From Candidatus Aldehydirespirator catecholifindens (GTDB lineage Bacteria; Actinomycetota; Acidimicrobiia; Acidimicrobiales; Aldehydirespiratoraceae), in the NCBI GenBank assembly GCA_028283245.1, contig JAPYNU010000057.1, positions 2,075 to 66,074 of the forward strand: a DNA stretch of 64,000 nt, read 5' to 3'. Below the pieces are notes generated by a model. It saw only the letters and a program-made list of their open reading frames with translations, was not told the origin of the DNA and made no database searches. Each line of letters opens with the position of its first letter. Within the stretch, counting starts at the first letter, position 1. A program made the position numbers and the translations under genes. Below are positions 4,151 to 46,921 of the stretch, piece by piece.

Positions 4151-7084
4151 CTACTCGTAGGTGCCCAGATAGCTGGCTATCACCAACTCGTCTCGGCGGA
4201 TCTCGTCGGGCGAGCCCTCGGCGATCACAGAACCTGCCTCTAGACAGTAGACGCGGTCGCTTATCCCCATCAGCAAAGCCATATCGTGCTCGATGACGAC
4301 CACAGCGGCATTAAGTTCGTTCTGTAGCTGCTTGATAAGCGGAGCGAACGCTTCGGCTTCTCTCTGTGCCACACCAGCGGTGGGTTCATCAAGCAGTAAC
4401 ACTCTGGCATCGACCGCCAGCAGGCCCGACAACTCAACTATGCGTCGCGTGCCTGTGGAAAGCGTGCCCACAAAATGATCGGCGTAACGTTTCAAGCCCA
4501 TGTAATCGATGATCTCGTCGGCTTCAGCACGTTTGAGTCGCTCCTGGCGCGGCGACGGTGGCAGAGCGGTCATTGATGCCAGCAGCCGTGACGACGACCT
4601 CGCCTCGAGAGCGACCATCAGCGACTCGCGGACTGTGAGATCGGGGTAAACGCGGGCACTCTGGAAGCTGCGGCCCAGACCGTTGGCGTGGCGTTCATGC
4701 GAACTCTTGTCAGTGACATCGGCACCGAGCACGAAGATTCTTCCCTCAGCTTCAACGAAGCCGCAGACGGCGTTGAGCAACGTGGACTTGCCAGCACCGT
4801 TGGTGCCGATCAAACCCACTAGCTCACCGTGATCCACATGCATCGACACCCTGTCGACAGCAACGTTGCCTCCGAAGCGCACCGTCACTTCCTCGGTCTT
4901 CAAAGCCGCAACAGCTCCGACGGACGCGGAAACCTTTGCTGGCTGTGATCGGTTGTATGCCGACACGGGCACCGGCACCGTGCGAGTCGAGTTCGCCGCA
5001 GAATCAGCCGGGGACTGCTTCGAGGGCTTCAAGGGCTGCGAGGGCTGCGTCTCAGGCTCTTCGTAAGGCACCACGACGGACTGCGTCTGAGGCTGCGGCG
5101 GCAGCCTTCGTTCGGCGAGCGCTAAGAGCCTGTCGCGCGCGCCGTAGACCAACTGCATCAGACCACCCGGAAAATACATGAGCAGAACCAGCAGACCGAT
5201 GTTGCTGGTCAAAAGCCTCACTAGGTCATCGAGTTGATCGGGAGTCAGCTGGGGAACACCTCGGACCCACAGCGCCCCGAGGATCGGGCCTGCCACCGAG
5301 CCAAGGCCGCCGACGATCGCGGTCGCCACCACCGCAATCGATTCGCCTGCCCTGAACGTGAAGGTGGGCTGAAGCGCAGGAACCAGGGTCACGAACAAAC
5401 CGCCGGAGTATGCGGCGATGCCCCCTGCCACCCCGAAAGCTGTCAGCTTCATGCGAATCGGCGACACGGTAGACGCAGCGGCCATCTCCTCGTTGTCGCG
5501 CACCGCCATCCATGATCTCCCTATGCCGGTGCGGCGAAGCCGCGCAACCACAACAGCCACCACCGCCAGCGATAGCAGGCATAAGAAGTAATAGTTGCGC
5601 CGTGAAGCTTCGAAGTTGATGCATACGGGGCCGATGTCGAGCACCGGCTTGGAGGCGGGCTGCAAGAAGCCAGCGCCTCCGGTGAAGAAGTCCTGATCGA
5701 ACAGCCAGGCAGCCGCCGCCACCGCGAACGCAAGGGTGGTAACAGCCAGGAAAAGCCCCCGCACGCGCAGCGCGGGGAGGCCCACTATCACTGCGGCCAA
5801 CACGCCGACGGCAGTAGCTATCACCATGGCTTGAGCCCATTGCAGTTCTAGCGACAGGTCGAACAAGTCAAAAGGCACCGGGATGTCGTTGCCCTGAGTC
5901 AGCCCGATCACGGTCAAGCCGCCCAGTCCCACAAAAGCGTATTGACCCAGCGAGAGCTGGCCAGCCCAGCCGGTGAGCACCGTCATCGACATCACCACCA
6001 TCGCGAACAGCAGAATGCTGGTCCAGATAAACAGCGCGCTGCTGCTGGTGAGCGACAATCCCAGAACCACAAAAAAACCGAAGAGCGCTATGAACCCCAT
6101 GGTGTTGAGGTGGCGCACCCACCACACATACTCCAAGCGACTGGGAACGGCTTTCAGCCGCGGCGACAACGACCAAGGCTCCTGTTCGCCGTTGCTGCGA
6201 ACTACAAGCACCACCACTGCCAGCACAGCCACGAACAGGTAAACGTCGACCAGTGAACGGTTAGCTGACTCCACGTTGGCGCGGATCAGCGTCTCGGCCA
6301 GACCCACCCCAACTCCAGCAACGATCGTGGCTGGCAGCGAACGCATCCGTGCCAGAAGCGACACCACCAACACCTTCAGAAGCAGCGGCTCGGCTATTGC
6401 GGCGGTGCCTGCCTCAGCCGAGTTGATGCCCTGCAACGGTGCCAGAAAGATTGCGGTGGCGGCCGCGAAAGCCCCCGAGACGGTCCACACGATCGTTGAG
6501 GTGCGTCGGGGCGAGGTGCCGTAGACACGCGCTGTGTCGGGATTGGAGGCTGATGCCCTGACCGCCAGCCCTAAGCGAGTTCGCGCCATGAACCAGGCCA
6601 ATGCGAAGATCAAAACCGGGATCACCGCCAAGACGACCAGTTCTCGAGCTTGCAGACGAATGTGGTCGGTGGGTGTCCAAGTCACCTCGAACGCTGCGGG
6701 GATCGGTCCTGGGGTGACCACGCTGGGCAGGTTGACCTTGGCGAACAGCACTACCTGACCGACACCTATGGTGGCGATCAGCAAAACTAGACGGGGTGCA
6801 TCGAAGAGTCGGCGGATAACTACCAGTTCGATGAGCATCCCGAGCACCGCGCAGACCGCCATAGCCAGCACGAACGACAGCCACCAACCGACTCCGTAAG
6901 AGACCAGCAGCAGCACGAACACCGCCACCCCGAAAGCCCCAATCTCGCCGTGAGCGAAGTTGAGCACTCCGGTAGATCGATAGACCAGCACGAACCCAGC
7001 GGCGAAAGCGGCATAGGTGAGCCCTGTCACCAGGCCGAGCGCCACGGCCTGCTGGCTCACGGTAAGTCCCAGAAACTCGATCAC
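4151..7084 (-). CDS. Branched-chain-amino-acid-type ABC transporter, LivH-like + LivM-like permease + LivG-like ATPase fusion
   Basis: TGVLNFAHGE (LivH), GWAGQLSLGQYAF and GGLGSVAGPILGA (LivM), Walker A GTNGAGKST, Walker B LLLDEP, IEHDM. Confidence 0.9.
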   Translation of the reverse strand: MIEFLGLTVSQQAVALGLVTGLTYAAFAAGFVLVYRSTGVLNFAHGEIGAFGVAVFVLLLVSYGVGWWLSFVLAMAVCAVLGMLIELVVIRRLFDAPRLVLLIATIGVGQVVLFAKVNLPSVVTPGPIPAAFEVTWTPTDHIRLQARELVVLAVIPVLIFALAWFMARTRLGLAVRASASNPDTARVYGTSPRRTSTIVWTVSGAFAAATAIFLAPLQGINSAEAGTAAIAEPLLLKVLVVSLLARMRSLPATIVAGVGVGLAETLIRANVESANRSLVDVYLFVAVLAVVVLVVRSNGEQEPWSLSPRLKAVPSRLEYVWWVRHLNTMGFIALFGFFVVLGLSLTSSSALFIWTSILLFAMVVMSMTVLTGWAGQLSLGQYAFVGLGGLTVIGLTQGNDIPVPFDLFDLSLELQWAQAMVIATAVGVLAAVIVGLPALRVRGLFLAVTTLAFAVAAAAWLFDQDFFTGGAGFLQPASKPVLDIGPVCINFEASRRNYYFLCLLSLAVVAVVVARLRRTGIGRSWMAVRDNEEMAAASTVSPIRMKLTAFGVAGGIAAYSGGLFVTLVPALQPTFTFRAGESIAVVATAIVGGLGSVAGPILGALWVRGVPQLTPDQLDDLVRLLTSNIGLLVLLMYFPGGLMQLVYGARDRLLALAERRLPPQPQTQSVVVPYEEPETQPSQPLKPSKQSPADSAANSTRTVPVPVSAYNRSQPAKVSASVGAVAALKTEEVTVRFGGNVAVDRVSMHVDHGELVGLIGTNGAGKSTLLNAVCGFVEAEGRIFVLGADVTDKSSHERHANGLGRSFQSARVYPDLTVRESLMVALEARSSSRLLASMTALPPSPRQERLKRAEADEIIDYMGLKRYADHFVGTLSTGTRRIVELSGLLAVDARVLLLDEPTAGVAQREAEAFAPLIKQLQNELNAAVVVIEHDMALLMGISDRVYCLEAGSVIAEGSPDEIRRDELVIASYLGTYE

Positions 7085-7119
7085 AGCCGCTGCGTCCTCG
7101 AGCGCCTCGTGGTGTTCAC
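7081..7119 (-). CDS. Putative bridge mini-ORF MNTTRRSRTQRL
   Basis: GTG overlaps the upstream stop (GTGA at 7116-7119); its TGA overlaps the downstream GTG (7081-7084). Confidence 0.45.
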   Translation of the reverse strand: MNTTRRSRTQRL

Positions 7120-9488
7120 CGGTCTTCGCCTCCCAAAAGCACCGCCTGAGCTATGTCGTCCTGCTCGGCCAGCTGCTGAGCCGATCCTTCAAAATGAATC
7201 CTGCCCTTCTCTAAGAAGATCGCCCGGTCAGCGAGAGCCAGTGCCACATTGATCGACTGCTCGACTATCACCATCGTCTGACCCTCAGCACGCAGCCTTT
7301 CGATCACCTCCAGCAGTTCCTGCACCACTACCGGCGCCAGCCCTAGGCTCAGCTCGTCGATGAGCAGCACCGCAGGGTCGTGCATCAAGGCCATAGCCAG
7401 AGCGAGTTGCTGCTGCTGGCCTCCAGAAAGGTCACCCGCTTTGATGCCCGCACGATCAGCAAGCCACGGGAACAGGCTCAGAGCCCGATCGGTGCGCTCT
7501 TTGACCTCATCTTTGCCGAGTTTCGATTCCAGCAGCGAAACCTTGAGATTGTCGGTCACCGAAAGAGACTCGAAAACGCCAGCACCGCCTCTGAGATGCA
7601 CCAGCCCGGCCGCAAAACGGTCTTCGGCCGTGGCGTAGGTGATGGTGCGGCCCCCTAGACGCACCACTCCGCGGCTTGGTATGCCGAGTCCGCTGACAGC
7701 ACGCAGCAGGGTGGACTTGCCTGCGCCGTTGGCACCGAGCAACGCCAGCACCTCGCCTTTCGCCACTTCGAGCGATACGTCGAAAAGCACCTGCACGCTG
7801 CTGTAGGCGAAGTCAAGGTTGTTGACTTGCAGTGCTGGGAGCGATTCGGGATCAGCCTCTATCCGAGCTCGTTCTTGATGTTCTTCACGCAGCTCCTCAA
7901 CCGAGCGATAAATGTCATAGCGGATGAAGCGGCTGCCGTAGAAGATCAACCCGCCACCAGCCAGAGCCGCCGATGGTGCCATTACTAGCATGGCGGTGCG
8001 TTCGTTGAGGGCATCTGAAAACTGCCCCGATATCAACCCGCAGAAGAAGCCACCTACCAACAAGACGAACATCGGCAGCAGAGCGAAAGCTTGAGCACGA
8101 ATACGATAGGGCGACACTGCCGCTATCACCGCTGGAGCCGCTACCAGAGCCATGGCCGCAAGGGTCTGGGCAACCGCTGTCAGCGCTACCAGCAACCCGA
8201 TGGTCTTGATGGACAGAGCCACTGCGAAGAGCAAACCCGAAGCCATAGCGCACCAACCCGCTAGGCGCATCATCAAAGCGGGATCACTGCGGAATCGGCT
8301 ATCGAAAAGCCTTCGCGCCAGAGGCAATCCGGCCAGCGCCGCCACCCAGATGAGTGACTCGACCACACCGCGCTGAAAGGGTCCCATGGCGTATTTGTCT
8401 TCCAACAGCAGATTGAACTGGACAGGCAAAGCGACCGAAACGAAGCCCAGAATCCCTGCTCCAGTGGACACATACCAGAAAGTCTTGGATTTGCGCAATC
8501 GTGCGTAGGCCACGCCGATCGGCACAGGCAGCGTGTCCGCCTCATGGCAGTTGTCTCCAGAAACGATGGCCTTGTCGAAACGGCCGCGCGGCGGTTCACG
8601 CAGCATCACCGACGATACGACTGCGGCTACCAGAGGTGCCACCGCAACAGCGAAGAAGGCTGACCGCCACGGCTCGTCGCCGCCCATCAGCACAGCGATC
8701 CCGCCGATCATCAGCGGACCCAGCAGCCGGCCAGCACAACTTCCGATTCTTTCTAGAGCGAAGATGCGGCTGCGAGCCGGAAGCGGATAAGTGTCTGCCA
8801 GGATCGAGTTCGTCACAACAATGCGATAAGACTGACCCAGCCCGGTAGCCGCATTTGTCAAAAACAGCTGGAAAGAGGTGACAACGAGACCGCTCAAAAA
8901 CGTGGCGACACCCCAGAAAATAGAAGCAACAGGGATGATGAACGCCCGCTTGAAGCGGTCCGCGAACACAGCCATTGGGATCGCGCCGAGCGCCAAGACG
9001 ACACCGCCAAAACCGAAGATTCCCAAAAGCGCTGTGTCGCTAATATTGAGAGAGTGCTGGATGTCGGGCGCGAGCACCCGAATGGCACGGGGCAACTCGT
9101 CAATGAACGCCAGCAGTGCCATCACGAACACCGTGGCCCGGCCGCCTGCACGTAAAGACTCTCGCAAAGTCATGGGCTCAGCACCGACTCCCGGCAGCAG
9201 GTCATCGGGGAGAACAGCTTCGGGGTCGCGTTCTGCTTGCTCGGCTCGGGGGCTGAGCTCTTCGGTGAGGATCTCTTCAGCCAATTCAGCAGCCGAGCGA
9301 TCCACCGGGACCGCCCGGTTTGCGACCGCACCCTGGGAACGCTTGCGGTGCCTTTCAGGAGCCTCGTATTCAGTCGTCTCAGACTGGTCCTGTGACTCAG
9401 ACTGGTCTTGTGACTCAGACTGGTCCTGTGACATAGGCATCCCCGCTAAACTCTCAGCAGCCAAAATTGACGTATCCAGCGCCTGCAA
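7116..9488 (-). CDS. MFS transporter fused to LivF-like ABC ATPase (start may be ATG 9440 or 9434)
   Basis: About 12 TM MFS region with motif-A-like AVFADRFKR, then GANGAGKST, LSGGQQQ, LLIDELSLGLAP, VEQS. Confidence 0.88.
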   Translation of the reverse strand: MQALDTSILAAESLAGMPMSQDQSESQDQSESQDQSETTEYEAPERHRKRSQGAVANRAVPVDRSAAELAEEILTEELSPRAEQAERDPEAVLPDDLLPGVGAEPMTLRESLRAGGRATVFVMALLAFIDELPRAIRVLAPDIQHSLNISDTALLGIFGFGGVVLALGAIPMAVFADRFKRAFIIPVASIFWGVATFLSGLVVTSFQLFLTNAATGLGQSYRIVVTNSILADTYPLPARSRIFALERIGSCAGRLLGPLMIGGIAVLMGGDEPWRSAFFAVAVAPLVAAVVSSVMLREPPRGRFDKAIVSGDNCHEADTLPVPIGVAYARLRKSKTFWYVSTGAGILGFVSVALPVQFNLLLEDKYAMGPFQRGVVESLIWVAALAGLPLARRLFDSRFRSDPALMMRLAGWCAMASGLLFAVALSIKTIGLLVALTAVAQTLAAMALVAAPAVIAAVSPYRIRAQAFALLPMFVLLVGGFFCGLISGQFSDALNERTAMLVMAPSAALAGGGLIFYGSRFIRYDIYRSVEELREEHQERARIEADPESLPALQVNNLDFAYSSVQVLFDVSLEVAKGEVLALLGANGAGKSTLLRAVSGLGIPSRGVVRLGGRTITYATAEDRFAAGLVHLRGGAGVFESLSVTDNLKVSLLESKLGKDEVKERTDRALSLFPWLADRAGIKAGDLSGGQQQQLALAMALMHDPAVLLIDELSLGLAPVVVQELLEVIERLRAEGQTMVIVEQSINVALALADRAIFLEKGRIHFEGSAQQLAEQDDIAQAVLLGGEDR
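9378..9431. repeat. 18-bp x3 coding repeat (SQDQSE)
   Basis: ctcagactggtc(c/t)tgtga x3 in the N-terminal tail of the MFS-ABC fusion. Confidence 0.9.
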
Positions 9489-9666
9489 CAGTAGTCGCCA
9501 TGACCAGGGCGACAGAACGCCCGTTCACCGCAACGCAGAGGCGATGCAGACGCTGCGAGACCGATCCAGAAACTGCTGTGCAACCCCTTATATGATGGCA
9601 GTCGTCATAAACGCTTGATCATTCAGGGTCATCTTTGAGACCGCAGACGCTAAAGAGAGAACAGCA

Positions 9667-11406: not shown

Positions 11407-11432
11407 TGCCGGGTGCCTGTAGTTCCCTGTAG

Positions 11433-11472
11433 TTGGAGCCAGCGGCCAGCAATTGGAGCCAGCGGCTAGCAA
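11433..11472. repeat. 20-bp tandem duplication
   Basis: ttggagccagcggc(c/t)agcaa x2 between convergent genes. Confidence 0.85.
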
Positions 11473-11520
11473 TTTCGGTGAACGCCGCACGCTGGCGCTC
11501 TCTCAGAGGCTGAGAAACTC

Positions 11521-12408: not shown

Positions 12409-12428
12409 ACCCTAAGTGTAATTTCTAT

Positions 12429-13052: not shown

Positions 13053-13163
13053 GGCCGAGCGGATAGAAGAGCCGAAAGCTCCACCATTAATCGAATCACC
13101 CAAAAATGCAAGTTCGGATGGACACCACGCCGGTTGTAGTAAAAGCTGGCATAGAGCGGGTGG

Positions 13164-15861: not shown

Positions 15862-15923
15862 AGCGGCCTCTTTTGGGAAGTAGACAAGTGAGATAATGAG
15901 TTTACCTAAAAACTCATCAAATA

Positions 15924-16334: not shown

Positions 16335-16357
16335 CGTTGCGCCACGATACTTGAGTT

Positions 16358-16468
16358 ATGGGGTTTGATCCCACACGCCCTCAGCGACGCCGACCGACCG
16401 ACTTGCTGTTCGTGGCTGCTGGACTGCTTGTGGCGATCGCTCTGCTGCTTTGGGCACTGCTGGGCTGA
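16358..16468 (+). CDS. Small single-TM protein (36 aa)
   Basis: Below the ORF-track cutoff: MGFDPTRPQRRRPTDLLFVAAGLLVAIALLLWALLG, basic N-terminus plus one clean TM helix. Confidence 0.6.
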   Translation: MGFDPTRPQRRRPTDLLFVAAGLLVAIALLLWALLG

Positions 16469-16471
16469 GCC

Positions 16472-17022: not shown

Positions 17023-17081
17023 GAAGAGACCTTAACAGCTATATGAGACTTTCAAATCTTTTTAGTAATTCTGATGCTGTC

Positions 17082-22354: not shown

Positions 22355-22392
22355 TTCTAGGATCTCAATTCAAGTGTTAGCTGAGTCAAGTG

Positions 22393-24127: not shown

Positions 24128-24134
24128 GCTGTTC

Positions 24135-31815: not shown

Positions 31816-32838
31816 CTAGCTGTGGGCCGTCGCTGCGATATGTCCCACCATGCCAGCGTTGACCATCTCACGGGCGACTCTCACCGCATTCATCACCGCC
31901 GCCGCTCGACTGGCCCCGTGAGAAATCACGCACACCCCTCTCACTCCCAGCAGCAAAGCGCCACCTACGCTGTCGGGGTGGATTTCCTGGGCCATTGAGT
32001 CAAGCGCCGGGGCGAGCATTTCGCCAGCTTTGCGCGAGGTGTCGTCGGTGTCTATCGCCACCAACATGCGACCAAACAATGCTCGCAGTGACCCCTCTAA
32101 CGCTTTGAGCGTGACATTGCCGGTGAAGCCGTCGGTCACAACCACATCAACATCAGAGGTCATGATGTCACGACCCTCCACATTGCCGATCCAATCCGCA
32201 GCAACATCTTGCGCCCAGCTACCGTCAGACAACTTCTCGAAAGCACTCTTGGTGAAATCGTTGCCCTTGCCAGCTTCTTCACCTATCGACAAGAGCCCCA
32301 CACGCGGCCTTTTGATGCCGAAACGGTCACGGGCGTATACCGACCCCATGCGAGCGAACTGCACCAACCATTCTGGGCGGCATTCGGCGTTAGCACCCGA
32401 GTCAAGTAAGGTGGTAGGACTGGCCCCCGGGGTGGGAATGGGCGTAGCTATCGCTGGCCTGGTGATGCCACGCACGCGCCCCATGCGAAGTAGCGCCGCT
32501 CCCATCGCAGCGCCAGTGTTGCCAGCCGAAACCATCGCAGAAGCTAGCCCGTCACGTACCGCTTCAGCGGCCCTGACCAGCGACGAATCCTTCATAGTGC
32601 GCACGCTTGAGCCTGGTTCGGCGTCCATGGGGATCACTTCAGAAGCTTCGATTACTTCAAGTCCGCCAGTGTCACCCATTTCGTCTGGGCGACCTACCAG
32701 CACTACGGGGATTCCCAACTCGTCGGCAGCACGGCGGGCACCAGCCACAATCTCACCGGGAGCGCTATCGCCTCCCATGGCATCAACAGCCACCGGCTCC
32801 ATGTTTATTAGACCAGCCGGACCCGACAAAGGTTCCAT
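31816..32838 (-). CDS. plsX: Phosphate acyltransferase PlsX
   Basis: AVDAMGGD, VSAGNTGA, GNVEGRD, TDGFTGNVTLK, SHG. Confidence 0.96.
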   Translation of the reverse strand: MEPLSGPAGLINMEPVAVDAMGGDSAPGEIVAGARRAADELGIPVVLVGRPDEMGDTGGLEVIEASEVIPMDAEPGSSVRTMKDSSLVRAAEAVRDGLASAMVSAGNTGAAMGAALLRMGRVRGITRPAIATPIPTPGASPTTLLDSGANAECRPEWLVQFARMGSVYARDRFGIKRPRVGLLSIGEEAGKGNDFTKSAFEKLSDGSWAQDVAADWIGNVEGRDIMTSDVDVVVTDGFTGNVTLKALEGSLRALFGRMLVAIDTDDTSRKAGEMLAPALDSMAQEIHPDSVGGALLLGVRGVCVISHGASRAAAVMNAVRVAREMVNAGMVGHIAATAHS

Positions 32839-32864
32839 TAGCTATCTGGTTCCATTAGCTATCT
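32831..32864. repeat. Perfect 17-bp tandem duplication spanning the plsX start
   Basis: ggttccattagctatct x2; creates mini-ORF MEPDS (32838-32855, minus strand). Confidence 0.9.
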
Positions 32865-33732: not shown

Positions 33733-33765
33733 TGCTGCACAGGTCGGATTTGTGAAAAGAATCGC

Positions 33766-34365
33766 TCAGGTGCCGTTGGTGCCAGCACTGAGACCACCCA
33801 GATCTTGATCGAAGACATCGTCTTCTTGCTTGGCTGGCTCAGGTACCGGCTCGGGTCTCGGCATTCTCGTGTCTTGCAGCCTCTGACGCCCGGCCGCCAC
33901 CGCCGTAACGGTCTTTTGGAGCGTCGCCTCAAATGCCGCTAAGCGCTGATCGCACCAGTCTTCGGTTTCGAGTTTCATCCTCTTGGCGCGGGCTTCTGCT
34001 TCGTCAACAGTGCGTCGGGCTCGCAGGTCAGCGGCCTTGACAACTTCGCTGCGCTGCACCATCTGCTCGGCACGAGCTCGAGCCGCAGCGATTATTTCCT
34101 CTCCTTCTCGCTGAGCACGCTGGCGCATGTCTTCTCGCTCTTTGAGCATCCACCGTGCCGCACGAAGCTCTTCAGGCAAAGCTGCTGACGCTCTCTGCAG
34201 AATCGCTGTCAGTTCGTCGCCGTTGATCATCACCGAAGTCGAAAACGGCATCGCGCGAGAGCGCTCCAGAATGCGGATTGCTTGGGCCAGCAACTGTTCA
34301 ACAGTCAACTGGCGAGCCTCGTGTGAGTTGCCGGGAGGTGACGACATGGGGGCATTCGAACTCAT
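33766..34365 (-). CDS. Coiled-coil DivIVA-related protein (SepIVA/Rv2927c-like)
   Basis: RAMPFSTSVMIN...LPEELRAARW...ETEDWCDQRLAAFE; conserved position between coaD and DUF177. Confidence 0.78.
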   Translation of the reverse strand: MSSNAPMSSPPGNSHEARQLTVEQLLAQAIRILERSRAMPFSTSVMINGDELTAILQRASAALPEELRAARWMLKEREDMRQRAQREGEEIIAAARARAEQMVQRSEVVKAADLRARRTVDEAEARAKRMKLETEDWCDQRLAAFEATLQKTVTAVAAGRQRLQDTRMPRPEPVPEPAKQEDDVFDQDLGGLSAGTNGT

Positions 34366-34451
34366 TGTTCCCGCCGTATCTGGACTGCCTTTGGCTTGGT
34401 CAAGCCTAGAGACACCCTCGGGTTATATGACGCACCGGCTGCCGGTTTCAT
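34362..34451 (-). CDS. Putative bridge mini-ORF (29 aa)
   Basis: MKPAAGASYNPRVSLGLTKPKAVQIRREQ; ATGA overlap with the coaD stop and ATGA overlap with the next start. Confidence 0.5.
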   Translation of the reverse strand: MKPAAGASYNPRVSLGLTKPKAVQIRREQ

Positions 34452-34933
34452 TGCTGCTGCTCGAAACGCTCTGCCAGACGCTTTTGAACCGGCTCAGGCA
34501 CCATGGACGAAACGTCGCCTCCGAAGCGCACCACTTCACGGATCAGCTTGGAAGCGACGAAAGATCTCTTGCTGGCAGAAGGAATAAAAACCGTCTGCAC
34601 GCCAGCCAACGCTTGGTTCATTTGCGCCATCTGTAGCTCGCTCTCGAAATCTGAGACCGCCCGCAAGCCTTTCACGATGAAGTCTGCTTCAAGGTCACGA
34701 GCCAGATTCACCACCAGACTGGAGAACATCGCTACCGAGACATTGGGCAGATCAGCGCAGCATTCCTTGATCATCTGCTCACGCTCATCAAGGCTGAACA
34801 AGCCCTGACCTTTTTGAGGGTTGCGCATCGCGGCAACGACCACCTCATCAAAGAGCTGCGCGCTGGTCACAATAATCTCAAGATGGCCGTAGTGGATCGG
34901 GTCGAAAGATCCTGGATACAGCACACGGGTCAC
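34448..34933 (-). CDS. coaD: Phosphopantetheine adenylyltransferase
   Basis: YPGSFDPIHYGH, KGLRAVSDFESE. Confidence 0.97.
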   Translation of the reverse strand: MTRVLYPGSFDPIHYGHLEIIVTSAQLFDEVVVAAMRNPQKGQGLFSLDEREQMIKECCADLPNVSVAMFSSLVVNLARDLEADFIVKGLRAVSDFESELQMAQMNQALAGVQTVFIPSASKRSFVASKLIREVVRFGGDVSSMVPEPVQKRLAERFEQQQ

Positions 34934-34986
34934 GGCTTGAATCGCTTTCTTTCTGTCGGCTTTTTGGCTGATCTACTGCTAGTCAT
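34930..34986 (-). CDS. Putative bridge mini-ORF (18 aa)
   Basis: MTSSRSAKKPTERKRFKP; ATGA overlap with the rsmD stop, GTGA overlap with the coaD start. Confidence 0.5.
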   Translation of the reverse strand: MTSSRSAKKPTERKRFKP

Positions 34987-35513
34987 TCAGTAACTGTTGC
35001 GAACGTCACCACGGTAGTCCCGTGACGGCGGCGATGTTGGACAACGAAACGCGAGCCCACCTCAACTGGACGATCCGACTCAATCACTACCAGCTCTGCG
35101 GGCACACATGCCAGCAACTCAGGCCAAGCATCGAAAGCATACGGAGGGTCAATAAGCGCCACATCGAAGCGGCGTGCAGCCAGTTCATCCAGCGCTGTCT
35201 CCACATCGGCAGCTATCACAGTGGCCGCCTCGCTGAAGCCTGTGAGCGCTAAGTTGCTTTGCAAAAGATCAGCCACAGCAGGGTTGCGTTCAACAAAAAC
35301 TGCGTGAGCGGCACCTCGGCTCAACGCTTCGATCCCTAACGCGCCCGTACCGGCGAAAAGATCAAGAACCTGTGTGTCTGTCACAGCACCCAAGGAATAA
35401 AGCGAGTTGAACACAGCCTGGCGTACCTTGTTGGGCGTGGGTCGCGTGCCGGTGCCGTCGGGTGCTGCCAGCAGGCGTCCCTTGGCTGAGCCAGCCGATA
35501 CACGGATGCTCAC
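34983..35513 (-). CDS. rsmD: 16S rRNA m2G966 methyltransferase
   Basis: TRPT, LDLFAGTGALGIEALSRGA, DPPY. Confidence 0.95.
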   Translation of the reverse strand: MSIRVSAGSAKGRLLAAPDGTGTRPTPNKVRQAVFNSLYSLGAVTDTQVLDLFAGTGALGIEALSRGAAHAVFVERNPAVADLLQSNLALTGFSEAATVIAADVETALDELAARRFDVALIDPPYAFDAWPELLACVPAELVVIESDRPVEVGSRFVVQHRRRHGTTVVTFATVTE

Positions 35514-35546
35514 CGTCTAACCCTTCTGCTCATCGTCTAACTCTTC
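35507..35546. repeat. 20-bp tandem duplication of the rsmD start region
   Basis: tgctca(c/t)cgtctaac(c/t)cttc x2; creates mini-ORF MSRRVRR (35510-35533, minus strand). Confidence 0.85.
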
Positions 35547-37691: not shown

Positions 37692-37755
37692 AGTCGAGAT
37701 CGCAGCCGTCGTGTAGTTATCGCCTCGCCGCTGTCCCCGTTGAACCGCCGACGCT

Positions 37756-39516: not shown

Positions 39517-39666
39517 GGTTCGAGGATACCTGTCGCTTTGGACGGGCTCGTTGATATGCGTCGCTTGGAGATATGCGTCGCTTGGAGTGCGCCGCCAAAT
39601 TGATCTAGTTGATCTAGGCACGCTAAACACGGCCAGTTTCAAGATGTGCCCACTACGATGCGTTTC

Positions 39667-39888
39667 GTGCAGGGCGTAATTAAGAGCTATGACCCAGTCA
39701 CCGGCGACGGTGTGCTTGTGAACGAAGCCGACCTGCAAGATGTCGATTTGGCAGCGAATGCGTTGGAGGGGTCGCTGTTCCGGATGCTGCGCCAAGGCCA
39801 GCGAGTGCAGTTCGATCTTGACAGCCAGGGTCGAGCCACTAGGCTGCGTCTGGGCTCCGAAGTCGACATGGCCACACCAGACTTCTAA
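39667..39888 (+). CDS. Cold-shock-domain-like small protein
   Basis: QGVIKSYDPVTGDG...FRMLRQGQRVQFD resembles the CSD fold; GTG 7 nt after TACGAT. Confidence 0.7.
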   Translation: MQGVIKSYDPVTGDGVLVNEADLQDVDLAANALEGSLFRMLRQGQRVQFDLDSQGRATRLRLGSEVDMATPDF

Positions 39889-39907
39889 AGCCCATTAACC
39901 AGAAGGC

Positions 39908-40282
39908 TCATATTGCGGAATCCAGGATCACTGCACGAATGCCGAGCCCCATCAAGAACAACCCGGTAAAGCCGTAAAGCAGACACAAGTAGGCACGCAG
40001 ATGCGGCCTGTAGCTGTAAGCGATGCCTACCGCGACCAGACCCGAAAACCCGTAGAGAGCGTGAAGTTCGGGTGCCTCACGGTTCTCGGCGACCATGAGC
40101 CACGTCCCCAGCCCTGCCTGCACAAACACGGTGAGCTGGGCTGCTGCTGTGGCGATCCACAACGCAGATGTGCGCAGGCTTGTGCGCCGATGCGCCACCA
40201 GAGCCCATAATCCCACCGCCGCGTTGGCGAAGATCACTACCCATGAGAACCAGTCATGCGTGGCGCTCACAGTCGCGAACAT
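39908..40282 (-). CDS. Four-TM hypothetical membrane protein
   Basis: Four hydrophobic segments, HALYG motif; ATG at 40282. Confidence 0.8.
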   Translation of the reverse strand: MFATVSATHDWFSWVVIFANAAVGLWALVAHRRTSLRTSALWIATAAAQLTVFVQAGLGTWLMVAENREAPELHALYGFSGLVAVGIAYSYRPHLRAYLCLLYGFTGLFLMGLGIRAVILDSAI

Positions 40283-40356
40283 CAAGCCACAACCACTTCA
40301 CAGTGCATCATTTTGGGGGCACAGACCGCGTGTGTGGCGCTCACAGTCGCGAACAT
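40282..40356 (-). CDS. Putative bridge mini-ORF (24 aa)
   Basis: MFATVSATHAVCAPKMMHCEVVVA; TGATG overlaps at both ends; made by a ~33-bp direct repeat with 74-bp period. Confidence 0.5.
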   Translation of the reverse strand: MFATVSATHAVCAPKMMHCEVVVA

Positions 40357-41498
40357 CAAGCCACAGCGCCGCTGGCACGCAATGACGCTATGGCATCGGA
40401 GTCGAGTCCCGCCTCAAGCAGGATCTCGTCGGTGTGCTGACCAGCGTGAGGTGGAGGTCGGCGGATGCTGCCTGGGGTTCGGCTAAAGCGCGGTGCTGGA
40501 TTCGGTTGAACCGTGCCAGCCACTTCACCGAAAGTGTCGCGCGCTGCGTTGTGCGGATGATCAGGTGCCTCAGTCAGTGACAGCACTGGAGCGAAACAGC
40601 AGTCGCTGCCCTCAAACAGTTCGCACCACTCATCTCTAGTGCGCTGCGCTATCACGGCAGCGAGTTTCTTTTTGAGGTCAGGCCAGGCCGCTCTGTCCAT
40701 CTGCTGATCCCATTCGCTGCCATCCAAACCCAAACGCTGGCGAAGCTCAGCATAGAACTGCGGCTCCAAAGGGCCCAAAGTGATGAACTTGCTATCAGCG
40801 GTTTCATACACGTTGTAGAAGTGGGCACCGGTGTCAAGCATGTTGGTGCCACGTTCTTCACTCCAAAAAGGCGTGCCAGCCAGCCCAAAGAACGCAGTCA
40901 TCAACGAGGCTGCACCGTCAACCATGGCTGCGTCCACCACTTGGCCTTGGCCCGAAGTGCGAGCCTCCAGCAAAGCGCACACCATCCCGAAAGCTAGATA
41001 CATGCCCCCGCCACCGAAATCCCCAACAAGGTTGAGTGGTGGCACTGGAGCTTCACCGGCACGCCCGATGCTGTGCAGTGCGCCCGCAAGGGCGATGTAG
41101 TTGAGATCATGGCCCGCGCTTGAGGCGTAAGGGCCTTCCTGCCCCCAGCCCGTCATTCTGCCGTAGACCAGACGAGGGTTGAGTTCTAGGCAGTCGTCGG
41201 GACCGATCCCCAGACGTTCAGCCACACCCGGTCGGAACCCCTCCAACATGGCATCAGCGCCTGATGCCAGCGTCATTACCAGATCCACCCCGTCAGACGA
41301 CTTCAGGTCAACACCAATCGAGCGTCTGCCACGGTTAAGTAGATCTCTGGGAGGTTCAGATGGGTCACCTCCGCGCACGGCTCCGGCACGATCAACACGG
41401 ATCACGTCCGCGCCCATGTCGGCAAGCATCATGGCACAAAACGGCCCAGGCCCGATGCCCGCGATCTCAATGACTCGAATTCCTGTCAAAGGCCCCAT
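40356..41498 (-). CDS. CaiB/BaiF family III CoA-transferase / alpha-methylacyl-CoA racemase
   Basis: IAGIGPGPFCAMMLADMGA, EGFRPGV, GHDLNY, LVGDFGGG. Confidence 0.92.
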   Translation of the reverse strand: MGPLTGIRVIEIAGIGPGPFCAMMLADMGADVIRVDRAGAVRGGDPSEPPRDLLNRGRRSIGVDLKSSDGVDLVMTLASGADAMLEGFRPGVAERLGIGPDDCLELNPRLVYGRMTGWGQEGPYASSAGHDLNYIALAGALHSIGRAGEAPVPPLNLVGDFGGGGMYLAFGMVCALLEARTSGQGQVVDAAMVDGAASLMTAFFGLAGTPFWSEERGTNMLDTGAHFYNVYETADSKFITLGPLEPQFYAELRQRLGLDGSEWDQQMDRAAWPDLKKKLAAVIAQRTRDEWCELFEGSDCCFAPVLSLTEAPDHPHNAARDTFGEVAGTVQPNPAPRFSRTPGSIRRPPPHAGQHTDEILLEAGLDSDAIASLRASGAVA

Positions 41499-41679
41499 GT
41501 CTTCACCTTCCTTCGCTATTGATTACCTGTCGATTACCTGTTCCGATTACCTATTCGCTCAGCGTCTTTTGACACTCCCAACATGTTGGAGTAAAGCCCG
41601 TGCATAAGTATCAGCGCAGGATCAGCGCGGGATCGGTTTCGTTACCGAAAATTTCATAAGCGATCTCAATCTCGCCGTT

Positions 41680-42975
41680 GTGAGCGCTGAGCATGTCACC
41701 GGCAAGTTATCGTCATCGTTGGTGTCGGAGATTCAACGTCGCACCATCGCCGTGACCATGAGTTCGGTGATACCCACCTCAATGGCCATGGCTGCCGCGT
41801 TTGCCGCCTCTGCGGTGCTCGCCGAGGAGATCACCGGCAGCGCCACTCTGGCGACTCTGGCCGCCGGGTCAATGGCGCTGGGCAGCATGGCCGCAGCGGT
41901 TCCTTTGTCGCGCCGCATGGCTCGGCTGGGAAGACGCCGGGGTCTTGTAGCTGGCTGGTGGCTGGGCGCTCTCGGGGCGGCGATTGCTGTTCTAGCAGCG
42001 GTGTTCAATGTGTATCTGTTGGTGGTGGTGGGAATGATCGGAGTGGGCATCGGGCAGACCGCCAACCTGGCAGCCCGCTACGCGGTGGCCGACAATGCGT
42101 CCGAGGACCGCTTGGCGCGCTCTATAGGGATGCTGATATGGGCCTCCACCTTCGGGGCTGCTGCGGGACCGACGATCGCGCTGGGGGCTGTAGCCGACTT
42201 AGCCGGATTTTTCGGCTTTCCTGAACTAGCTGGCCCTTACCTGCTGAGCACTGCAATGTTTGTGACCGGACTGGTCATCACCCACACCTGGCTACGCCCC
42301 GATCCGCTTGAGGTGCTCGGCACTATCGGAGCCAAAGCCCCCAAACCAGAGTCGCCTTTCGTAGTGATCCGCCGGATCGCGGCTCTGCCAGCGGCTCGAC
42401 TGGCCCTGCTAGCGATGCTGATGGGGCAGTTGGTGATGGTCGGAGTGATGACAGCCACACCGCTGCATATGACTAGCGGCGATCAAGACTTGGCTGTAAT
42501 CGGTCAGGTGATCTCGCTTCACATTGTGGGTATGTACGCTTTCTCGCCGATTGTGGGATGGCTGGTCGACCGGCTTGGCACCCATGTCATGGTCACAGTC
42601 GGCGGGCTGACTTTGTTTGTCGGGGCTGAACTCGCTGGGCACACCAATCCTGAGCACAGTGCTGGTTTGTTCAGCGGGCTAATGCTTATAGGCATCGGCT
42701 GGAGTTGTGGACTGATCGCTGGAAGCACGCTTTTGACCAACGCTTTTGCTGTCGAACACAGAGTGGAGGTTCAAGGTGCAGCCGACTTCGTGATGATTAG
42801 CGGCGGGGCTCTGGGTGCGATGTCATCGGGTGCGCTAGTGGAACTGCTGGGATTTCAGTTGCTGAGTCACTATTCCGGCATTGCGTCTCTGCTGCTGGTC
42901 GCTGCTGCCGCAGGGGCCTGGTTCAATGCACGCTTCAACCGCACACGGCTCACTCAGGCAACTCCATCGTCTTGA
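41680..42975 (+). CDS. MFS transporter
   Basis: About 12 TM; RLGRRRGL and GWLVDRLG motif-A-like segments. Confidence 0.9.
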   Translation: MSAEHVTGKLSSSLVSEIQRRTIAVTMSSVIPTSMAMAAAFAASAVLAEEITGSATLATLAAGSMALGSMAAAVPLSRRMARLGRRRGLVAGWWLGALGAAIAVLAAVFNVYLLVVVGMIGVGIGQTANLAARYAVADNASEDRLARSIGMLIWASTFGAAAGPTIALGAVADLAGFFGFPELAGPYLLSTAMFVTGLVITHTWLRPDPLEVLGTIGAKAPKPESPFVVIRRIAALPAARLALLAMLMGQLVMVGVMTATPLHMTSGDQDLAVIGQVISLHIVGMYAFSPIVGWLVDRLGTHVMVTVGGLTLFVGAELAGHTNPEHSAGLFSGLMLIGIGWSCGLIAGSTLLTNAFAVEHRVEVQGAADFVMISGGALGAMSSGALVELLGFQLLSHYSGIASLLLVAAAAGAWFNARFNRTRLTQATPSS

Positions 42976-44009
42976 TCGTCAAGAATGGCGATGCGATCAG
43001 GGTCAAGGCGGTAGCTGAGTTTCTCGCCGACCTGCGCTGGCTGCGGATCCATCACCACAAGTTTGCAATCACCAGGATCACTGCTTAGTACCAGTTCAAA
43101 ACGATCACCGCGGAAACGCACTTCGCTCACCGTTGCCGTCAACGAATTCGTGGCGGTGAAATCTGTGGACTCAGTAGACGCTTCAAACTTAGGAGACGCT
43201 TCGTTGAGTCGCGAAAAGGCATCACTACGAAGCAGTACCCGGCCCGCAGCAACACTGAGACACCCCCAAGGCACTTCACCGCGTGGTCCGACATTCACTA
43301 AATTGGTATGACCCAAAAATCTGGCTGTGTTGCTTTGTCGGGGATCACGCCAAACCTCCGCTGGGGTGCCGATCCTGGCGATCTGTCCCGCCCGCATCAA
43401 AGCCACCCTGTCTGCTACCGCGAAAGCTTCGTCGTGGTCATGGGTGACATGCAGCGCCGTCACGCCGACACGTCGCAGCACCGTGCGCAGTTCTGCGGTA
43501 AGTTGCTCACGACGGGGGCGGTCCAGCGACCCGAGCGGCTCATCAAGCATCAACAGCCGAGGTTCGGGGGCCAGCGATCGCGCTAACGCGACTCGCTGGG
43601 CTTCACCTCCCGAAAGCGTGGCGATCGACCGACGCTGATAGCCAGCCAGACCTACTAGATCAAGCACTTCTTCAACCCGTCGGTCGCGCCTAGGCGCGTC
43701 TAGTTTCTTCATGTGCAAACCGAAAGCCACGTTGGCTGCCACATCACGATGCGAAAACAGGGCGTGCTCCTGAAACATCAACCCAAAATCACGGCGATGC
43801 ACAGGCTTTGCGTCTAGGTTCTCGCCGTTCCAACGAACCTCGCCGTCATCAAGTGGCTGCAATCCCGAAATGGCACGCAACAACGTGCTTTTGCCGCAGC
43901 CGCTAGGGCCAAGCACTGCAAGGATTTCACCGGTTGCTACTTGCAGATCCAATCCAGAGAGGGCAACAACATCTGCGAAGCTGACCTTGGCACCGGTGAC
44001 TGTCAGCAT
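42954..44009 (-). CDS. thiQ: Thiamine ABC transporter ATP-binding protein
   Basis: GPSGCGKST, LSGGE, LDEP, VTHD; in a TPP-riboswitch operon. Confidence 0.85.
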   Translation of the reverse strand: MLTVTGAKVSFADVVALSGLDLQVATGEILAVLGPSGCGKSTLLRAISGLQPLDDGEVRWNGENLDAKPVHRRDFGLMFQEHALFSHRDVAANVAFGLHMKKLDAPRRDRRVEEVLDLVGLAGYQRRSIATLSGGEAQRVALARSLAPEPRLLMLDEPLGSLDRPRREQLTAELRTVLRRVGVTALHVTHDHDEAFAVADRVALMRAGQIARIGTPAEVWRDPRQSNTARFLGHTNLVNVGPRGEVPWGCLSVAAGRVLLRSDAFSRLNEASPKFEASTESTDFTATNSLTATVSEVRFRGDRFELVLSSDPGDCKLVVMDPQPAQVGEKLSYRLDPDRIAILDDQDDGVA

Positions 44010-44027
44010 CTGCGAACCACCCGAGAC

Positions 44028-45689
44028 CTAGAAGACACCCGAGCGCGCATCGCCCCACAGATCCATCAAGAACACAACCAAAGCGGTGAGCACCATAAGC
44101 GAAACAGCCAACGCCATGGCTTGTCCTCTCAACGCGTCACCGGGAGTGCCCAGCAGCCTAAACAATGCCAGCGGCGCAGTCAGTGTCTCGGGCCTGCGAG
44201 GAATGAACGATGTCGCCCCGAACTCACCAAGCGACACAGCAAAAGCGAACCCGGCACCGACTGCTGCGCCGCGTGCGGCAGCAGGTAGGTCTACCTCACG
44301 GCGTGCCCGCCAAGGCGATGCCCCCAACATCGCTGCCGCTTCACGCACCCGGGGGCTGACACTGCGCAGCATTGGCACCAGTGTGCGTACTACGAAAGGA
44401 ATCCCCACCACGGCGTGCGCTATCGGAACCACAATCACCGCTGTGCGAATGTCAATCGGTGGACGGTTCAGCACCAGCAAGAAACCCAGCCCGACTGTTA
44501 CCGCCGAAGTGCCTAGCGGCAGCGTCAAGGTGACATCGGTTAGCCCCGCTACGGTGCGGCCAGTGAGTGAAGCTGAGCGCAACACCACGATGGCAGCCGC
44601 GCCACCCACCAGCAGAGCCAAAGCGGCGGCTGGCACAGCGAACTGCAACGAATTAGCCAGAGCAGCCAAAGCAGTGTCGGGCAGCAGGTTGACCCGCTGA
44701 GCCATAGCGCTGTAGTGACGCAACGTGTAGCTGCCGTCGCCTGCTATCAGCGAACGTTCAACTAGCAGCGCTAGGGGCAAACCCAGAACTAATCCCATAA
44801 CCCCCAAGTTGAACATCAATCCGATGCCTCGATGTCGGGGGGCGGGCGCTGCCACGATTGCTGGTGCCGAAGAAGCGCGACGGCGCTCCAGCAGGATCGA
44901 CACGATCACCAAAGCCAGCACTGCCGCAAGTTGTATGACGGCCAATGAGGCCGCAACCGACAAGTCGAGACGCACCACGGCTTGTCGGTAGATCTCGGTT
45001 TCGATGGTGGCGCGTGTTGGGCCTCCCAGGATTAGCACCACCCCGAAAGAAGTAAACGAGAACAAAAAAACGATAGCTGACGCAGCGGCCAGCGAAGGTG
45101 CCAGTCGAGGCAGCACAACATGGCGAAAAACCGCGAAACGTGAGGCACCCAACACGCGGGCTTGATCCTCAACGCGGGCATCAAGGCTCTCCCAATGCGC
45201 TCCGACTATGCGGAGCACCACCGCATAGTTGAAGAACATGTGCGCCAAAAGGATCGCCCATATCGTGTGACGCAAGCTCAGAGCACCGTCGCCTGCTAGT
45301 CCGAGACGGTCGAATGTGCCTTCGAACGCTGCCGCCACAACCACAGTCGGCAAAGTGAATGGCACCGTGGCCACAGCTCGCACCAACCGGCGACCACGAA
45401 AACGAAGCCGAGCCACCGCGGCGGCTGCGGGCAGCGCCACCGCCACAGTCAACGCTGTTGACGCTGCAGCCTGCCAGAAGGTGAACCAGATCACCGAGCG
45501 ATGCGACGGCGAAGCGAAGACCTCGCCTAGGCCTCCAGCCGCCCCAGATCCTCCGAAGCCTCGGTGAATAACAGCAGCGACAGGCCACACAAAAAACAGC
45601 CCCATGAACAAGATCACCAAACCCGCAGGCAGCAGCACCCAGCTGTGGCGGGCTGCTGCGGCGAGTCTCGTTGTTGTCGGTTTCGGCAC
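44028..45689 (-). CDS. thiP: Thiamine ABC transporter permease
   Basis: Duplicated permease with EAA loops (EDQARVLGAS, EAAAMLGAS), SLGEFGAT. Confidence 0.87.
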   Translation of the reverse strand: MPKPTTTRLAAAARHSWVLLPAGLVILFMGLFFVWPVAAVIHRGFGGSGAAGGLGEVFASPSHRSVIWFTFWQAAASTALTVAVALPAAAAVARLRFRGRRLVRAVATVPFTLPTVVVAAAFEGTFDRLGLAGDGALSLRHTIWAILLAHMFFNYAVVLRIVGAHWESLDARVEDQARVLGASRFAVFRHVVLPRLAPSLAAASAIVFLFSFTSFGVVLILGGPTRATIETEIYRQAVVRLDLSVAASLAVIQLAAVLALVIVSILLERRRASSAPAIVAAPAPRHRGIGLMFNLGVMGLVLGLPLALLVERSLIAGDGSYTLRHYSAMAQRVNLLPDTALAALANSLQFAVPAAALALLVGGAAAIVVLRSASLTGRTVAGLTDVTLTLPLGTSAVTVGLGFLLVLNRPPIDIRTAVIVVPIAHAVVGIPFVVRTLVPMLRSVSPRVREAAAMLGASPWRARREVDLPAAARGAAVGAGFAFAVSLGEFGATSFIPRRPETLTAPLALFRLLGTPGDALRGQAMALAVSLMVLTALVVFLMDLWGDARSGVF

Positions 45690-45710
45690 TCGTTGTTGTC
45701 GGTTTCGGCA
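45667..45710. repeat. Perfect 22-bp tandem duplication at the thiP start
   Basis: ctcgttgttgtcggtttcggca x2. Confidence 0.92.
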
Positions 45711-45757
45711 TGGTCTGCGCTGTGATCACGGAACCGGAGGTTCCCAGAGCAACACCT

Positions 45758-46921
45758 TCAGCGAAGCACTATCTCCACCCAGCGGTCGGTCCAAGCGTCA
45801 CGCTGAGCCTCGACCTCAGCTGGATCCAAAATGAACGGATCCTCTGCGATCTCGGCGTGTGCCACAAACTCTGGTGGCAGGGTGGCAGCGGTGTTCACTG
45901 GGAATACGAACATGTTCAAAGGAACATCGTTTTGGAATGTTTCACTGAGCATGAAGTCGATCAACGCTCTTGCGCCTGCTGGGTTGTCGGCACCTGCCAG
46001 CACACCAGCAAACTCAATCTGGCGGTAACAACTGTCAATTATCACCCCTGTGGGTGGATTATCGACAGGAGGATCAGCGAAGATCACCTCCGCAGGCGGG
46101 CTGGATGCATATGACACGACTATCGGCCGGTCGCCGCCGCCGACGGTGAACTCGCCGTAGTAGGCATCGGACCATCCAGAGGTAACTGACACGCCGTTGT
46201 CGCGCAGAGCAGCCCAGTAGTCCTCATAACCTTCGCCGTAGCGGGCAATGGTGGCCAATAAGAACGCAAGTCCAGGCGAAGAAGTTTCGGGGCTCGGCAC
46301 TACGAGCATGTCTTTGTAGGCCTCATCGGTGAGGTCGTCGAGGTCGGTGGGCGGCGGCGTGTCGCCAGCGAATGCATCAATCCAGTAGTTGAGGCAGACA
46401 TCGCCGAAATCGACGGGTGTTACCCGGTGCTGTGAGTCGAGCTCGAATCGGTCGGGCACATTTGTGAGCCCCGGTGATTCGTAGGGCTCAAAAAGATCGC
46501 AGTCCAAGCCTCGCTGCAAGAACGTGTTGTCGATACCGAACAGCACATCGCCGAGCGGTTCGCCGGCGGTAAGGCACGCTTGCGCTACTAAGGCACCGGC
46601 ATCACCAGAGGCGAGTTGCTCTACTTCGATGCCAGTAGAGGATGTGAACGCTTCCAATGTCTCTGGAGAAACCGCGAACGAGTCGTGGGTGAGCAACGTC
46701 ACGGTGGTTCCAGACAGGTCTTCGCTTCCTGTGCTGTTGCTAGCGTCGCTGTCAGTGTCGTTGTCGTTGCTGTCGCCGCAGGCCGCAGACAGAAGCGCCA
46801 GCGCTACCAGCGCCGCGACCACACTTAGAGCCTTGGGCAACTTGTGCCTTTTGCACGAAACCCTGTGCGCTCGCTTTTTGGGGCGCGCTTGTCGAACAGT
46901 GTTTGAGATTTGGTGATCCAT
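45758..46921 (-). CDS. thiB: Thiamine ABC transporter substrate-binding lipoprotein
   Basis: Lipobox LSAAC, THDSF, GIDNTFL, PETSSPGLAFL, GWSDAYY, VSYASSP, RQIEFAG. Confidence 0.92.
   Translation of the reverse strand: MDHQISNTVRQARPKKRAHRVSCKRHKLPKALSVVAALVALALLSAACGDSNDNDTDSDASNSTGSEDLSGTTVTLLTHDSFAVSPETLEAFTSSTGIEVEQLASGDAGALVAQACLTAGEPLGDVLFGIDNTFLQRGLDCDLFEPYESPGLTNVPDRFELDSQHRVTPVDFGDVCLNYWIDAFAGDTPPPTDLDDLTDEAYKDMLVVPSPETSSPGLAFLLATIARYGEGYEDYWAALRDNGVSVTSGWSDAYYGEFTVGGGDRPIVVSYASSPPAEVIFADPPVDNPPTGVIIDSCYRQIEFAGVLAGADNPAGARALIDFMLSETFQNDVPLNMFVFPVNTAATLPPEFVAHAEIAEDPFILDPAEVEAQRDAWTDRWVEIVLR

Follow-up and report, generated by a model that had tools for sequence, protein, structure and literature searches.

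Why should the gap between two operon genes be filled by one short open reading frame (ORF) that starts on the upstream gene's stop codon and stops on the start codon of the downstream gene? The question is raised by a 64,000-nt stretch of DNA (the window) from Candidatus Aldehydirespirator catecholifindens (GenBank assembly GCA_028283245.1, contig JAPYNU010000057.1, positions 2,075 to 66,074), in which four junctions on the minus strand, J1 to J4, have exactly this organization. A preliminary description of the window listed five such double-overlap ORFs, and J1 to J4 are precisely as it described, whereas the fifth, J5, is a weak case. On balance, the evidence leans towards these spacers being expansions of junctions, not genes, left by frequent duplications that have been filtered by selection for continued termination-reinitiation coupling.

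The window is part of a 2.59-Mb draft genome (designated G000; 57.6% G+C, 104 contigs), and its DNA occurs in sponge-metagenome runs. The nearest named relatives of its CoaD protein are in records labelled Acidimicrobiia or Candidatus Aldehydirespirator. The closest complete relative, G010, was analysed by the same pipeline over 2.80 of its 2.82 Mb. Genes, 2272 of them in G000, were called with our own simple caller, which scores dicodon log-odds, the type of start codon and the class of Shine-Dalgarno motif, and then selects genes greedily.

Spacer ORFs at four gene junctions

As read directly from the sequence, the J1 spacer (7081..7119) opens with GTGA, has 12 sense codons and closes on GTGA. 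Upstream of it is a gene with MFS and ABC domains (7116-9434) and downstream a gene with permease and ABC domains (4151-7084), both assigned by Pfam. J2 and J3 flank coaD in the gene order recG, rsmD, coaD and a 199-aa gene. The J3 spacer (34930..34986; ATGA, 18 sense codons, GTGA) separates rsmD (34983-35513; Pfam) from coaD (34448-34933), and the J2 spacer (34362..34451; ATGA, 29 sense codons, ATGA) separates coaD from the 199-aa gene (33766-34365), which matches no Pfam family. At J4 (40282..40356) the spacer has 24 sense codons between two TGATG sequences, and lies between the genes for a CoA-transferase III (40356-41498) and a 124-aa membrane protein (39908-40282). All four spacers are free of stops, as is J5, and at both ends of all four the mini-ORF overlaps its neighbour by 4 or 1 nt in the NTGA or TRATG manner. 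The downstream starts at J1, J3 and J4 are also those chosen by our caller; at J2 it prefers ATG 34347, whereas the alignment of relatives favours the ATGA at 34365 (est-q 0).

J4 is bounded by a 32-nt exact direct repeat, the first copy of which (40334..40365) holds the end of the upstream gene, the TGATG and the first 7 downstream codons, and the second copy (40260..40291), 74 nt downstream and so with a period of 74, bears the working start of the downstream gene. A 32-letter contig from run X1 stops exactly on this second copy.

In E. coli and Haloferax, re-initiation falls by 40-80% at +14 nt and is almost nil at about 20-38 nt, and the last 15 nt of the upstream ORF are enough for coupling, according to the accessible text of PMC10666635. 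Since re-initiation is almost lost at such distances, the gaps of 31-82 nt at J1 to J4 should break coupling unless they are translated across.

The same junctions in relatives and other strains

The preliminary description proposed a check of whether relatives have a direct overlap where the window has a spacer, and the outcome was positive at all four junctions. At J1, a direct ATGA/GTGA overlap precedes the same MIEFLG N-terminus in 33 of the 58 metagenome loci that were scored, including 13 of the 15 closest, and G010 has a bridge of equal length. Within the genus, as estimated from alignment lengths, the length difference is a multiple of 3 in 21 of 26 alignments across J1, and in another three it is exactly -35, the size of the spacer plus overlap. 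The coaD junction J2 is a -4 overlap in 7 of 11 genus relatives. G010 has instead a 190-nt bridge, the 3′-part of which is common to the G000 spacer, and G008 a 130-nt bridge of unrelated sequence; elsewhere in the order there are further, independent bridges in loci L184 (37 nt) and L198/L199 (52 nt). For J3, an overlap (GTGA or TAGTG; -4 or -1) is present in 9 of 11 genus relatives and one relative has a 10-nt gap. The G010 junction is a 43-nt bridge, and across the order the arrangement is -4 in 29 of 45 scored loci. The J4 genes overlap directly at TGATG in G039 and likewise, by eye and with in-frame 12-nt repeats, in G010. They are separated by a 43-nt bridge in G008 (called by script) and by what by eye is a separate junction duplication in G007, again closing on TGATG. 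In G047 (locus L029), a 125-nt gap before the membrane-protein gene is filled, by eye, by three mini-ORFs joined through TGATG and GTGA.

With direct NTGA or TGATG overlaps in relatives at each place, the four strict spacers are, on this comparison, derived expansions of coupled junctions, the ancestral state being the direct overlap. Where the junction downstream of coaD and the J4 junction have been expanded independently (G008, G010, L184 and L198/L199 for the former, G008, G007 and G047 for the latter), the results are bridges again.

Such changes between strains are documented by contigs, about 98% alike, that come from three other samples. A 17-nt start duplication at 32838-32855 is missing from the run X2 contig, a 22-nt duplication at J5 is missing from the X3 and X4 contigs, and one other strain has a 15-nt in-frame duplication inside the J2 bridge; J3 and J4 are identical in the contigs from other samples. 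Junction duplication is thus an ongoing process, with strain differences of 17, 15 and 22 nt.

Two other gaps in this gene cluster have a different appearance. In two distant Acidimicrobiales loci, L218 and L221, rsmD and coaD are separated by a common, well-conserved 91-nt spacer that has stops in the bridging frame and may be a regulatory RNA or a promoter. The 152-nt recG-rsmD gap of G017 (L010) has two copies of a palindromic unit of ~45 nt (GGAATTGGCAGC…GCTGCCAATTC) that looks like a hairpin element of the REP or MITE type and is not present in the other relatives.

Frequency of bridged junctions

For genome-wide counts, a junction was scored as a bridge if the gap length was 1 modulo 3, an NTG lay on the upstream stop (U), a stop lay on the downstream start (D) and the frame between them was free of stops. 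Strict bridges have ATG, GTG or TTG starts and were counted in gaps of 25-150 nt, whereas a lenient rule also admits CTG. Strict bridges occupy 41 of 677 junctions in G000 and 29 of 722 in G010. When junction ends were re-paired at random around real gap interiors, 18.0±3.6 were obtained for G000 (maximum 28 in 200 rounds) and 13.2±3.1 for G010 (maximum 22 in 200 rounds), so that the expectation of the preliminary description, that the count would exceed a null, holds in both genomes. With starts set to the longest ORF, G000 still has 34 bridges against 14.2±3.2 after re-pairing. Dinucleotide shuffling of the interiors gave a higher expectation, 27.9±3.8 with a maximum of 40, for G000. A mononucleotide-shuffle null (15.0±3.7) was set aside, because gaps are poor in stop codons and it therefore overstates the excess. 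The excess is real and roughly two-fold.

In G000, the association of U with D is confined to the bridging phase, where the odds ratio is 2.28 (p=0.0024; 1.09 and 1.05 in the other two phases), and the corresponding ratios in G010 are 1.78 in the bridging phase and 1.04 and 0.69 in the others.

Phase of junction expansions

Reciprocal best hits between G000 and G010 (n=1834, median 87% identity) defined 1050 conserved co-oriented junctions, of which 65 have a -4 or -1 overlap in one genome and a gap of 15-200 nt in the other. The gap length modulo 3 is 0 in 5 of these events, 1 in 27 and 2 in 33. In class 2, an NTG overlaps the upstream stop in 29 of 33 cases and is in frame with the downstream gene; these are mostly alternative start calls or N-terminal extensions, and the clean contrast is therefore the 27 events in the bridging phase against the 5 in class 0 (p=0.00011). 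All 13 strict bridges among the 65 events are in class 1, although only these 13 of the 27 in-phase expansions are intact bridges. With gaps of 0-400 nt admitted, classes 0, 1 and 2 have 7, 39 and 42 members (39 vs 7, p=1.8e-6), or 15, 33 and 13 if starts are set to the longest ORF. A version free of start calls, based solely on how the frames of the two genes are related, gives 177 vs 126 (p=0.004). In most events the C-terminus of the upstream protein is conserved and the spacer frame is unlike the tail or head of the ortholog, which suggests that most are true insertions.

The preliminary description held that insertions at coupled junctions survive only when they leave a translatable spacer. 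The 27:5 phase ratio supports the direction of this claim, but 'only' is too strong, as there are 5-7 out-of-phase events, the 22-nt duplication in the window is out of phase as well, and fewer than half of the in-phase spacers are intact. The observation behind the description is largely right and has been partly confirmed, and its evolutionary inference is partly supported.

The supply of duplications has no such bias. Among 540 intergenic tandem arrays with periods of 10-150 in the 5.4 Mb of G000 and G010, the period modulo 3 is distributed 174/193/173 (p=0.49), and mutational input is phase-neutral. Where a start codon has been duplicated together with its context, the period is 2, 1 and 0 modulo 3 in 21, 7 and 3 cases, respectively, and repeats of at least 12 nt at overlap-type junctions, by our own reading, are divided 8:2. 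An initial control for start duplications, based on windows 45 nt upstream (32/28/13), was dropped because it is not independent of the duplications, and the TRF classes were used instead.

The lineage seems to be unusually prone to, or tolerant of, short duplications. On contig C61 of G000 (72948-73007), a 14-nt unit is present in 4.3 copies, each with an ATGA, that make two successive 5-codon relay ORFs, and in G010 (1029981-1030222) 5.6 copies of a 43-nt unit lie at a junction whose width in G000 is 8 nt.

Alternative explanations for the spacers

Could the bridges result from chance and ascertainment, with no selection at all? In DNA of 58% G+C, short gaps are often stop-free, TGA is the commonest stop (50-62% of those at co-oriented junctions) and an A follows 31-43% of starts, and by chance 15-18 of the 41 bridges in G000 are expected. 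A number of results point this way, or otherwise weigh against a filter on coupled junctions. In an offset control, 33 of 221 ORFs that begin at a stop-overlapping NTG (15%) closed on the downstream start, and ORFs from NTGs a few bases further on in the same frame did so in 15 of 106 (14%), with 14 of 151 in other frames. Openness of the interior contributes little to the excess, as seen from the dinucleotide shuffle of G000, and in G010 the same shuffle gave 21.4±3.2 with a maximum of 31, above the 29 observed. No phase bias is apparent if every tandem repeat in contact with a called start is included (26/22/26), or in the full set of junction repeats of at least 12 nt (9:7:4 for periods of 2, 1 and 0 modulo 3), and none of the 10 expanded rsmD-coaD junctions scored across the order is a bridge. 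In addition, the phase test was devised only after the first data had been seen, the direction of change is set only for the window junctions and not for the 65 events as a whole, and all counts depend on the simple gene caller. Most bridges are also poorly conserved. Chance is nonetheless an unlikely explanation overall, being already disfavoured by the bridge counts, which exceed the re-pairing maxima in two genomes (41 vs 28 and 29 vs 22), by the confinement of the U-D association to one phase, by the 27:5 bias and by the independent recurrence of bridges at the same two junctions. The opposite possibility, that the spacers are required relays or regulatory short ORFs under long-term purifying selection, with downstream genes unable to initiate alone, seems equally improbable. 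It would accommodate the J1 bridge of unchanged length in G010, the prevalence of frame-preserving differences in the J1 alignments of the genus, the in-frame duplication inside J2 of one strain, and the 10 bridges that G000 and G010 have in common, of which 4 have kept their length and 6 have changed it only by multiples of 3. Against it, and again not as expected of a maintained coupling, the other 20 of the 30 G000 bridges with a gap in G010 are not bridges there, 19 of them with a length difference that is not a multiple of 3. Conservation is no higher in the bridging phase (diagonal 67) than in the other two (86 and 61), and frame-preserving length changes are not enriched (7/26 vs a background of 145/388, p=0.40). 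A Shine-Dalgarno sequence precedes the downstream start at 44% of bridges, 33-41% of other gaps and 45% of overlaps; there is no deficit after bridges, and therefore no sign of a special dependence on coupling. Bridges are not very stable and are best read as transient by-products rather than a stable device.

Three further explanations would each give the spacer ORF an identity of its own. That the spacers are real small-protein genes, coupled like other operon genes, is very unlikely, although there is one such case: an uncalled 45-codon double-overlap ORF outside the window, on contig C50 of G000 (minus-strand coordinates 7225-7358), encodes CcmD (PF04995, E 2.7e-7, above the curated cut-off) and has a dicodon score of +0.40 per codon. 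The bridge count therefore also picks up true small genes that simple callers miss. In a Pfam scan of three spacer ORFs from elsewhere in the genome, the two others, also with positive scores, had no match. The median dicodon score of spacer ORFs, -0.13 per codon, is that of other open gap frames (-0.14, p=0.59) and not that of genes (+0.43), with only 3 of the 41 bridges reaching the lower quartile of genes; the view of the preliminary description that the peptide is irrelevant agrees with this result. Moreover, spacers that arose independently at a single junction are unrelated in sequence between species, and the four in the window arose within ancestral overlaps. Alternatively, a spacer might be the stranded C-terminal tail of the upstream gene, left with the old overlapping stop after a frameshift and under no selection. 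This predicts the bridging phase and automatically places an NTG on the new TGA, and in G008 the old coaD end (…EQEQ, ATGA) can by eye be placed at the 3′-end of the spacer. However, for most of the 27 in-phase events a good alignment with the ortholog extends over the last 25 residues of the upstream protein, J2 has an undamaged coaD C-terminus at its upstream stop, and the match of the spacer frame to the ortholog tail is no better than noise. This model is rejected because upstream C-termini are conserved and the spacer resembles neither the tail nor the head of the ortholog, and little probability can be given to it. As little can be given to a mobile intercistronic element like the MIRUs (mycobacterial interspersed repetitive units), with its own coupled ORF. 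The anatomy is as described for MIRUs in the accessible part of PMC12548453, and arrays are present at some junctions, such as those on C61 and in G010, but in a blastn-short comparison of the 91 spacers of G000 and G010, each matched only itself, a local duplicate or the orthologous place, with no repeat family, and the mobile-element explanation is rejected.

Structured RNA was also considered and rejected as an identity for the spacers. Fold z-scores at the five junctions are -0.26 to +0.94, and Rfam has 0 matches in the window. No promoter- or terminator-like site is present in the J2, J3 and J4 spacers, with the sigma-70 consensus as the only promoter model.

Expansion of coupled junctions under a proposed phase filter

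The explanation favoured here, expansion of coupled junctions, would operate as follows. In the ancestor of each junction, neighbouring genes had the usual 4-nt (NTGA) or 1-nt (TGATG) overlap of stop and start, by which translation is coupled through termination-reinitiation. The lineage generates many short tandem duplications and small insertions, some of which would hit coupled junctions. After such a hit, the upstream copy of the start would stay on the upstream stop and could still catch terminating ribosomes. For an added length of 2 modulo 3, a throw-away ORF would cross the spacer and stop on the real start in an NTGA or TRATG context, so that ribosomes freed there could re-initiate and coupling would outlive a gap that would otherwise abolish it. 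With an added length of 1 modulo 3, the ORF would read over the real start out of frame, in a frame of the downstream gene that is poor in stops, and with 0 modulo 3 the downstream protein would merely be longer. Removal by selection of most of the 1-modulo-3 expansions would leave the excess of bridges. The peptide would have no function, and many bridges would later be lost to further indels, presumably once initiation of the downstream gene depends on a ribosome-binding site of its own.

This account presumes that the spacers are translated by ribosomes. The phase bias would be caused by selection either on coupling or on interference at the start site, and the benefit of a bridge may accordingly be a working relay or the mere avoidance of interference. 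Tentatively, and with rather less confidence than in the expansions themselves, coupling may be proposed to act as a genome-wide phase filter, under which any insertion is tolerated if it gives rise to a relay ORF, arbitrary and non-coding, or to two or three such ORFs in a chain. The operons of this actinobacterial lineage would then have dozens of translated spacers without peptide function, and ribosomes would be handed over gaps several times longer than those that re-initiation normally spans.

Relation to known coupling systems

MIRU ORFs overlap both neighbouring genes. MIRUs, like the spacers described here, occur in Actinomycetota, and at J1 to J4, as judged from sequence, the spacer likewise lies at a start codon within a probable operon, its ORF in the -4 placement before the downstream gene. 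MIRUs insert at start codons with their ORF coupled at -4, as outlined in the accessible part of a 2025 review (PMC12548453). They differ in being a dispersed and apparently mobile family, whereas the spacers are unique sequences or local junction duplicates. The available text of the same review also describes short ORFs that solely deliver ribosomes to a coupled downstream gene. With these, and with engineered mini-cistron coupling cassettes, the spacers have in common an ORF that needs only to end on the next start and a peptide that is irrelevant (PMC12548453, in the text available). The delivering ORFs, however, are placed at the 5′-end of a message and have a ribosome-binding site of their own from which to start, whereas the spacers are inside probable operons, start on the preceding stop and would pass on ribosomes that are already engaged, in two hops. 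The suggestion of the preliminary description that the idea had not been described thus cannot stand, given the delivering ORFs and MIRUs in that part of the review.

The signals at each end of a spacer are identical to those of direct NTGA or TGATG coupling, which in the normal case requires genes that overlap or are very close together (PMC10666635), whereas the spacers span 31-82 nt. At comEB-comEC of Bacillus subtilis and the intergenic ORF of mgtC-mgtB of Salmonella, it is the translation of the intervening ORF, rather than what it encodes, that promotes production of the downstream protein, as reported in the portions available of 10.1101/2020.12.30.424838 and PMC8092293. These are single specialised cases that work partly through RNA structure, with no double overlap and no genome-wide pattern. 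In the full-text literature covered, which leaves out most subscription journals, neither spacer ORFs of non-repeat sequence that derive from duplications nor a phase filter that acts on insertions at junctions is described. The logic is, as far as the sequences allow a comparison, already known from delivering ORFs and MIRUs; what is different here is that the spacers are unique local duplicates with coupling at both ends.

J5, partial cases and neighbouring genes

J5 (45726..45761, minus strand) lies between genes that Pfam assigns to a solute-binding protein, upstream, and a two-domain permease, downstream. Its frame runs from CTG 45761 to GTG 45729, opening with CTGA, continuing for 11 sense codons and closing on GTGA, and is a bridge only under the lenient rule; it is a weak case, CTG being no usual start. 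GTG 45729 is the orthologous permease start (the G010 protein begins VITAQ), but in this assembly it is out of frame with the permease because of a perfect 22-nt tandem duplication in the N-terminal region (45667..45710, minus strand, 2.0 copies, 100%). As the duplication shifts the frame, the permease as assembled starts at GTG 45689 or later. The permease with the duplication may start at GTG 45689 or be a fresh pseudogene, or the duplicated copy may be a minority variant.

Two partial cases and a near miss, all on the minus strand, were confirmed on re-reading to be as first described. A 5-codon ORF (32838..32855) that ends in TAATG on the start of the gene at 31816-32838 results from the 17-nt tandem duplication of that start region, and a 7-codon ORF (35510..35533) that ends in GTGA on the rsmD start lies in an imperfect duplication of the start region with a period of 20 nt, also listed as a period-20 repeat (C58 37581-37620). 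The near miss (22357..22389) is a TTG-started ORF inside a 16-nt repeat, with a TAG 2 nt before ATG 22354. The genes that flank J1 are themselves unusual, as an MFS transporter fused to an ABC ATPase (772 aa, 7116-9434) adjoins a branched-chain-type permease fused to an ABC ATPase (977 aa, 4151-7084).

Implications

If the phase bias proves to be an artefact, the finding would shrink to a quirk of high-G+C gaps. For annotation, a stop-free gap with a length of 1 modulo 3 that is flanked by NTGA is likely to be an expanded coupled junction. The spacers also provide a natural design for the spacing of coupled genes in synthetic operons. If the expansion account is true, a broken spacer frame would result in loss of the downstream protein. 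If the phase bias is the result of selection, then some of the 'pervasive' small ORFs of ribosome profiling would be neutral relays and not micropeptide genes, and coupling would limit which insertions operon junctions can accept, an influence that would extend beyond the -4 and -1 overlaps themselves.

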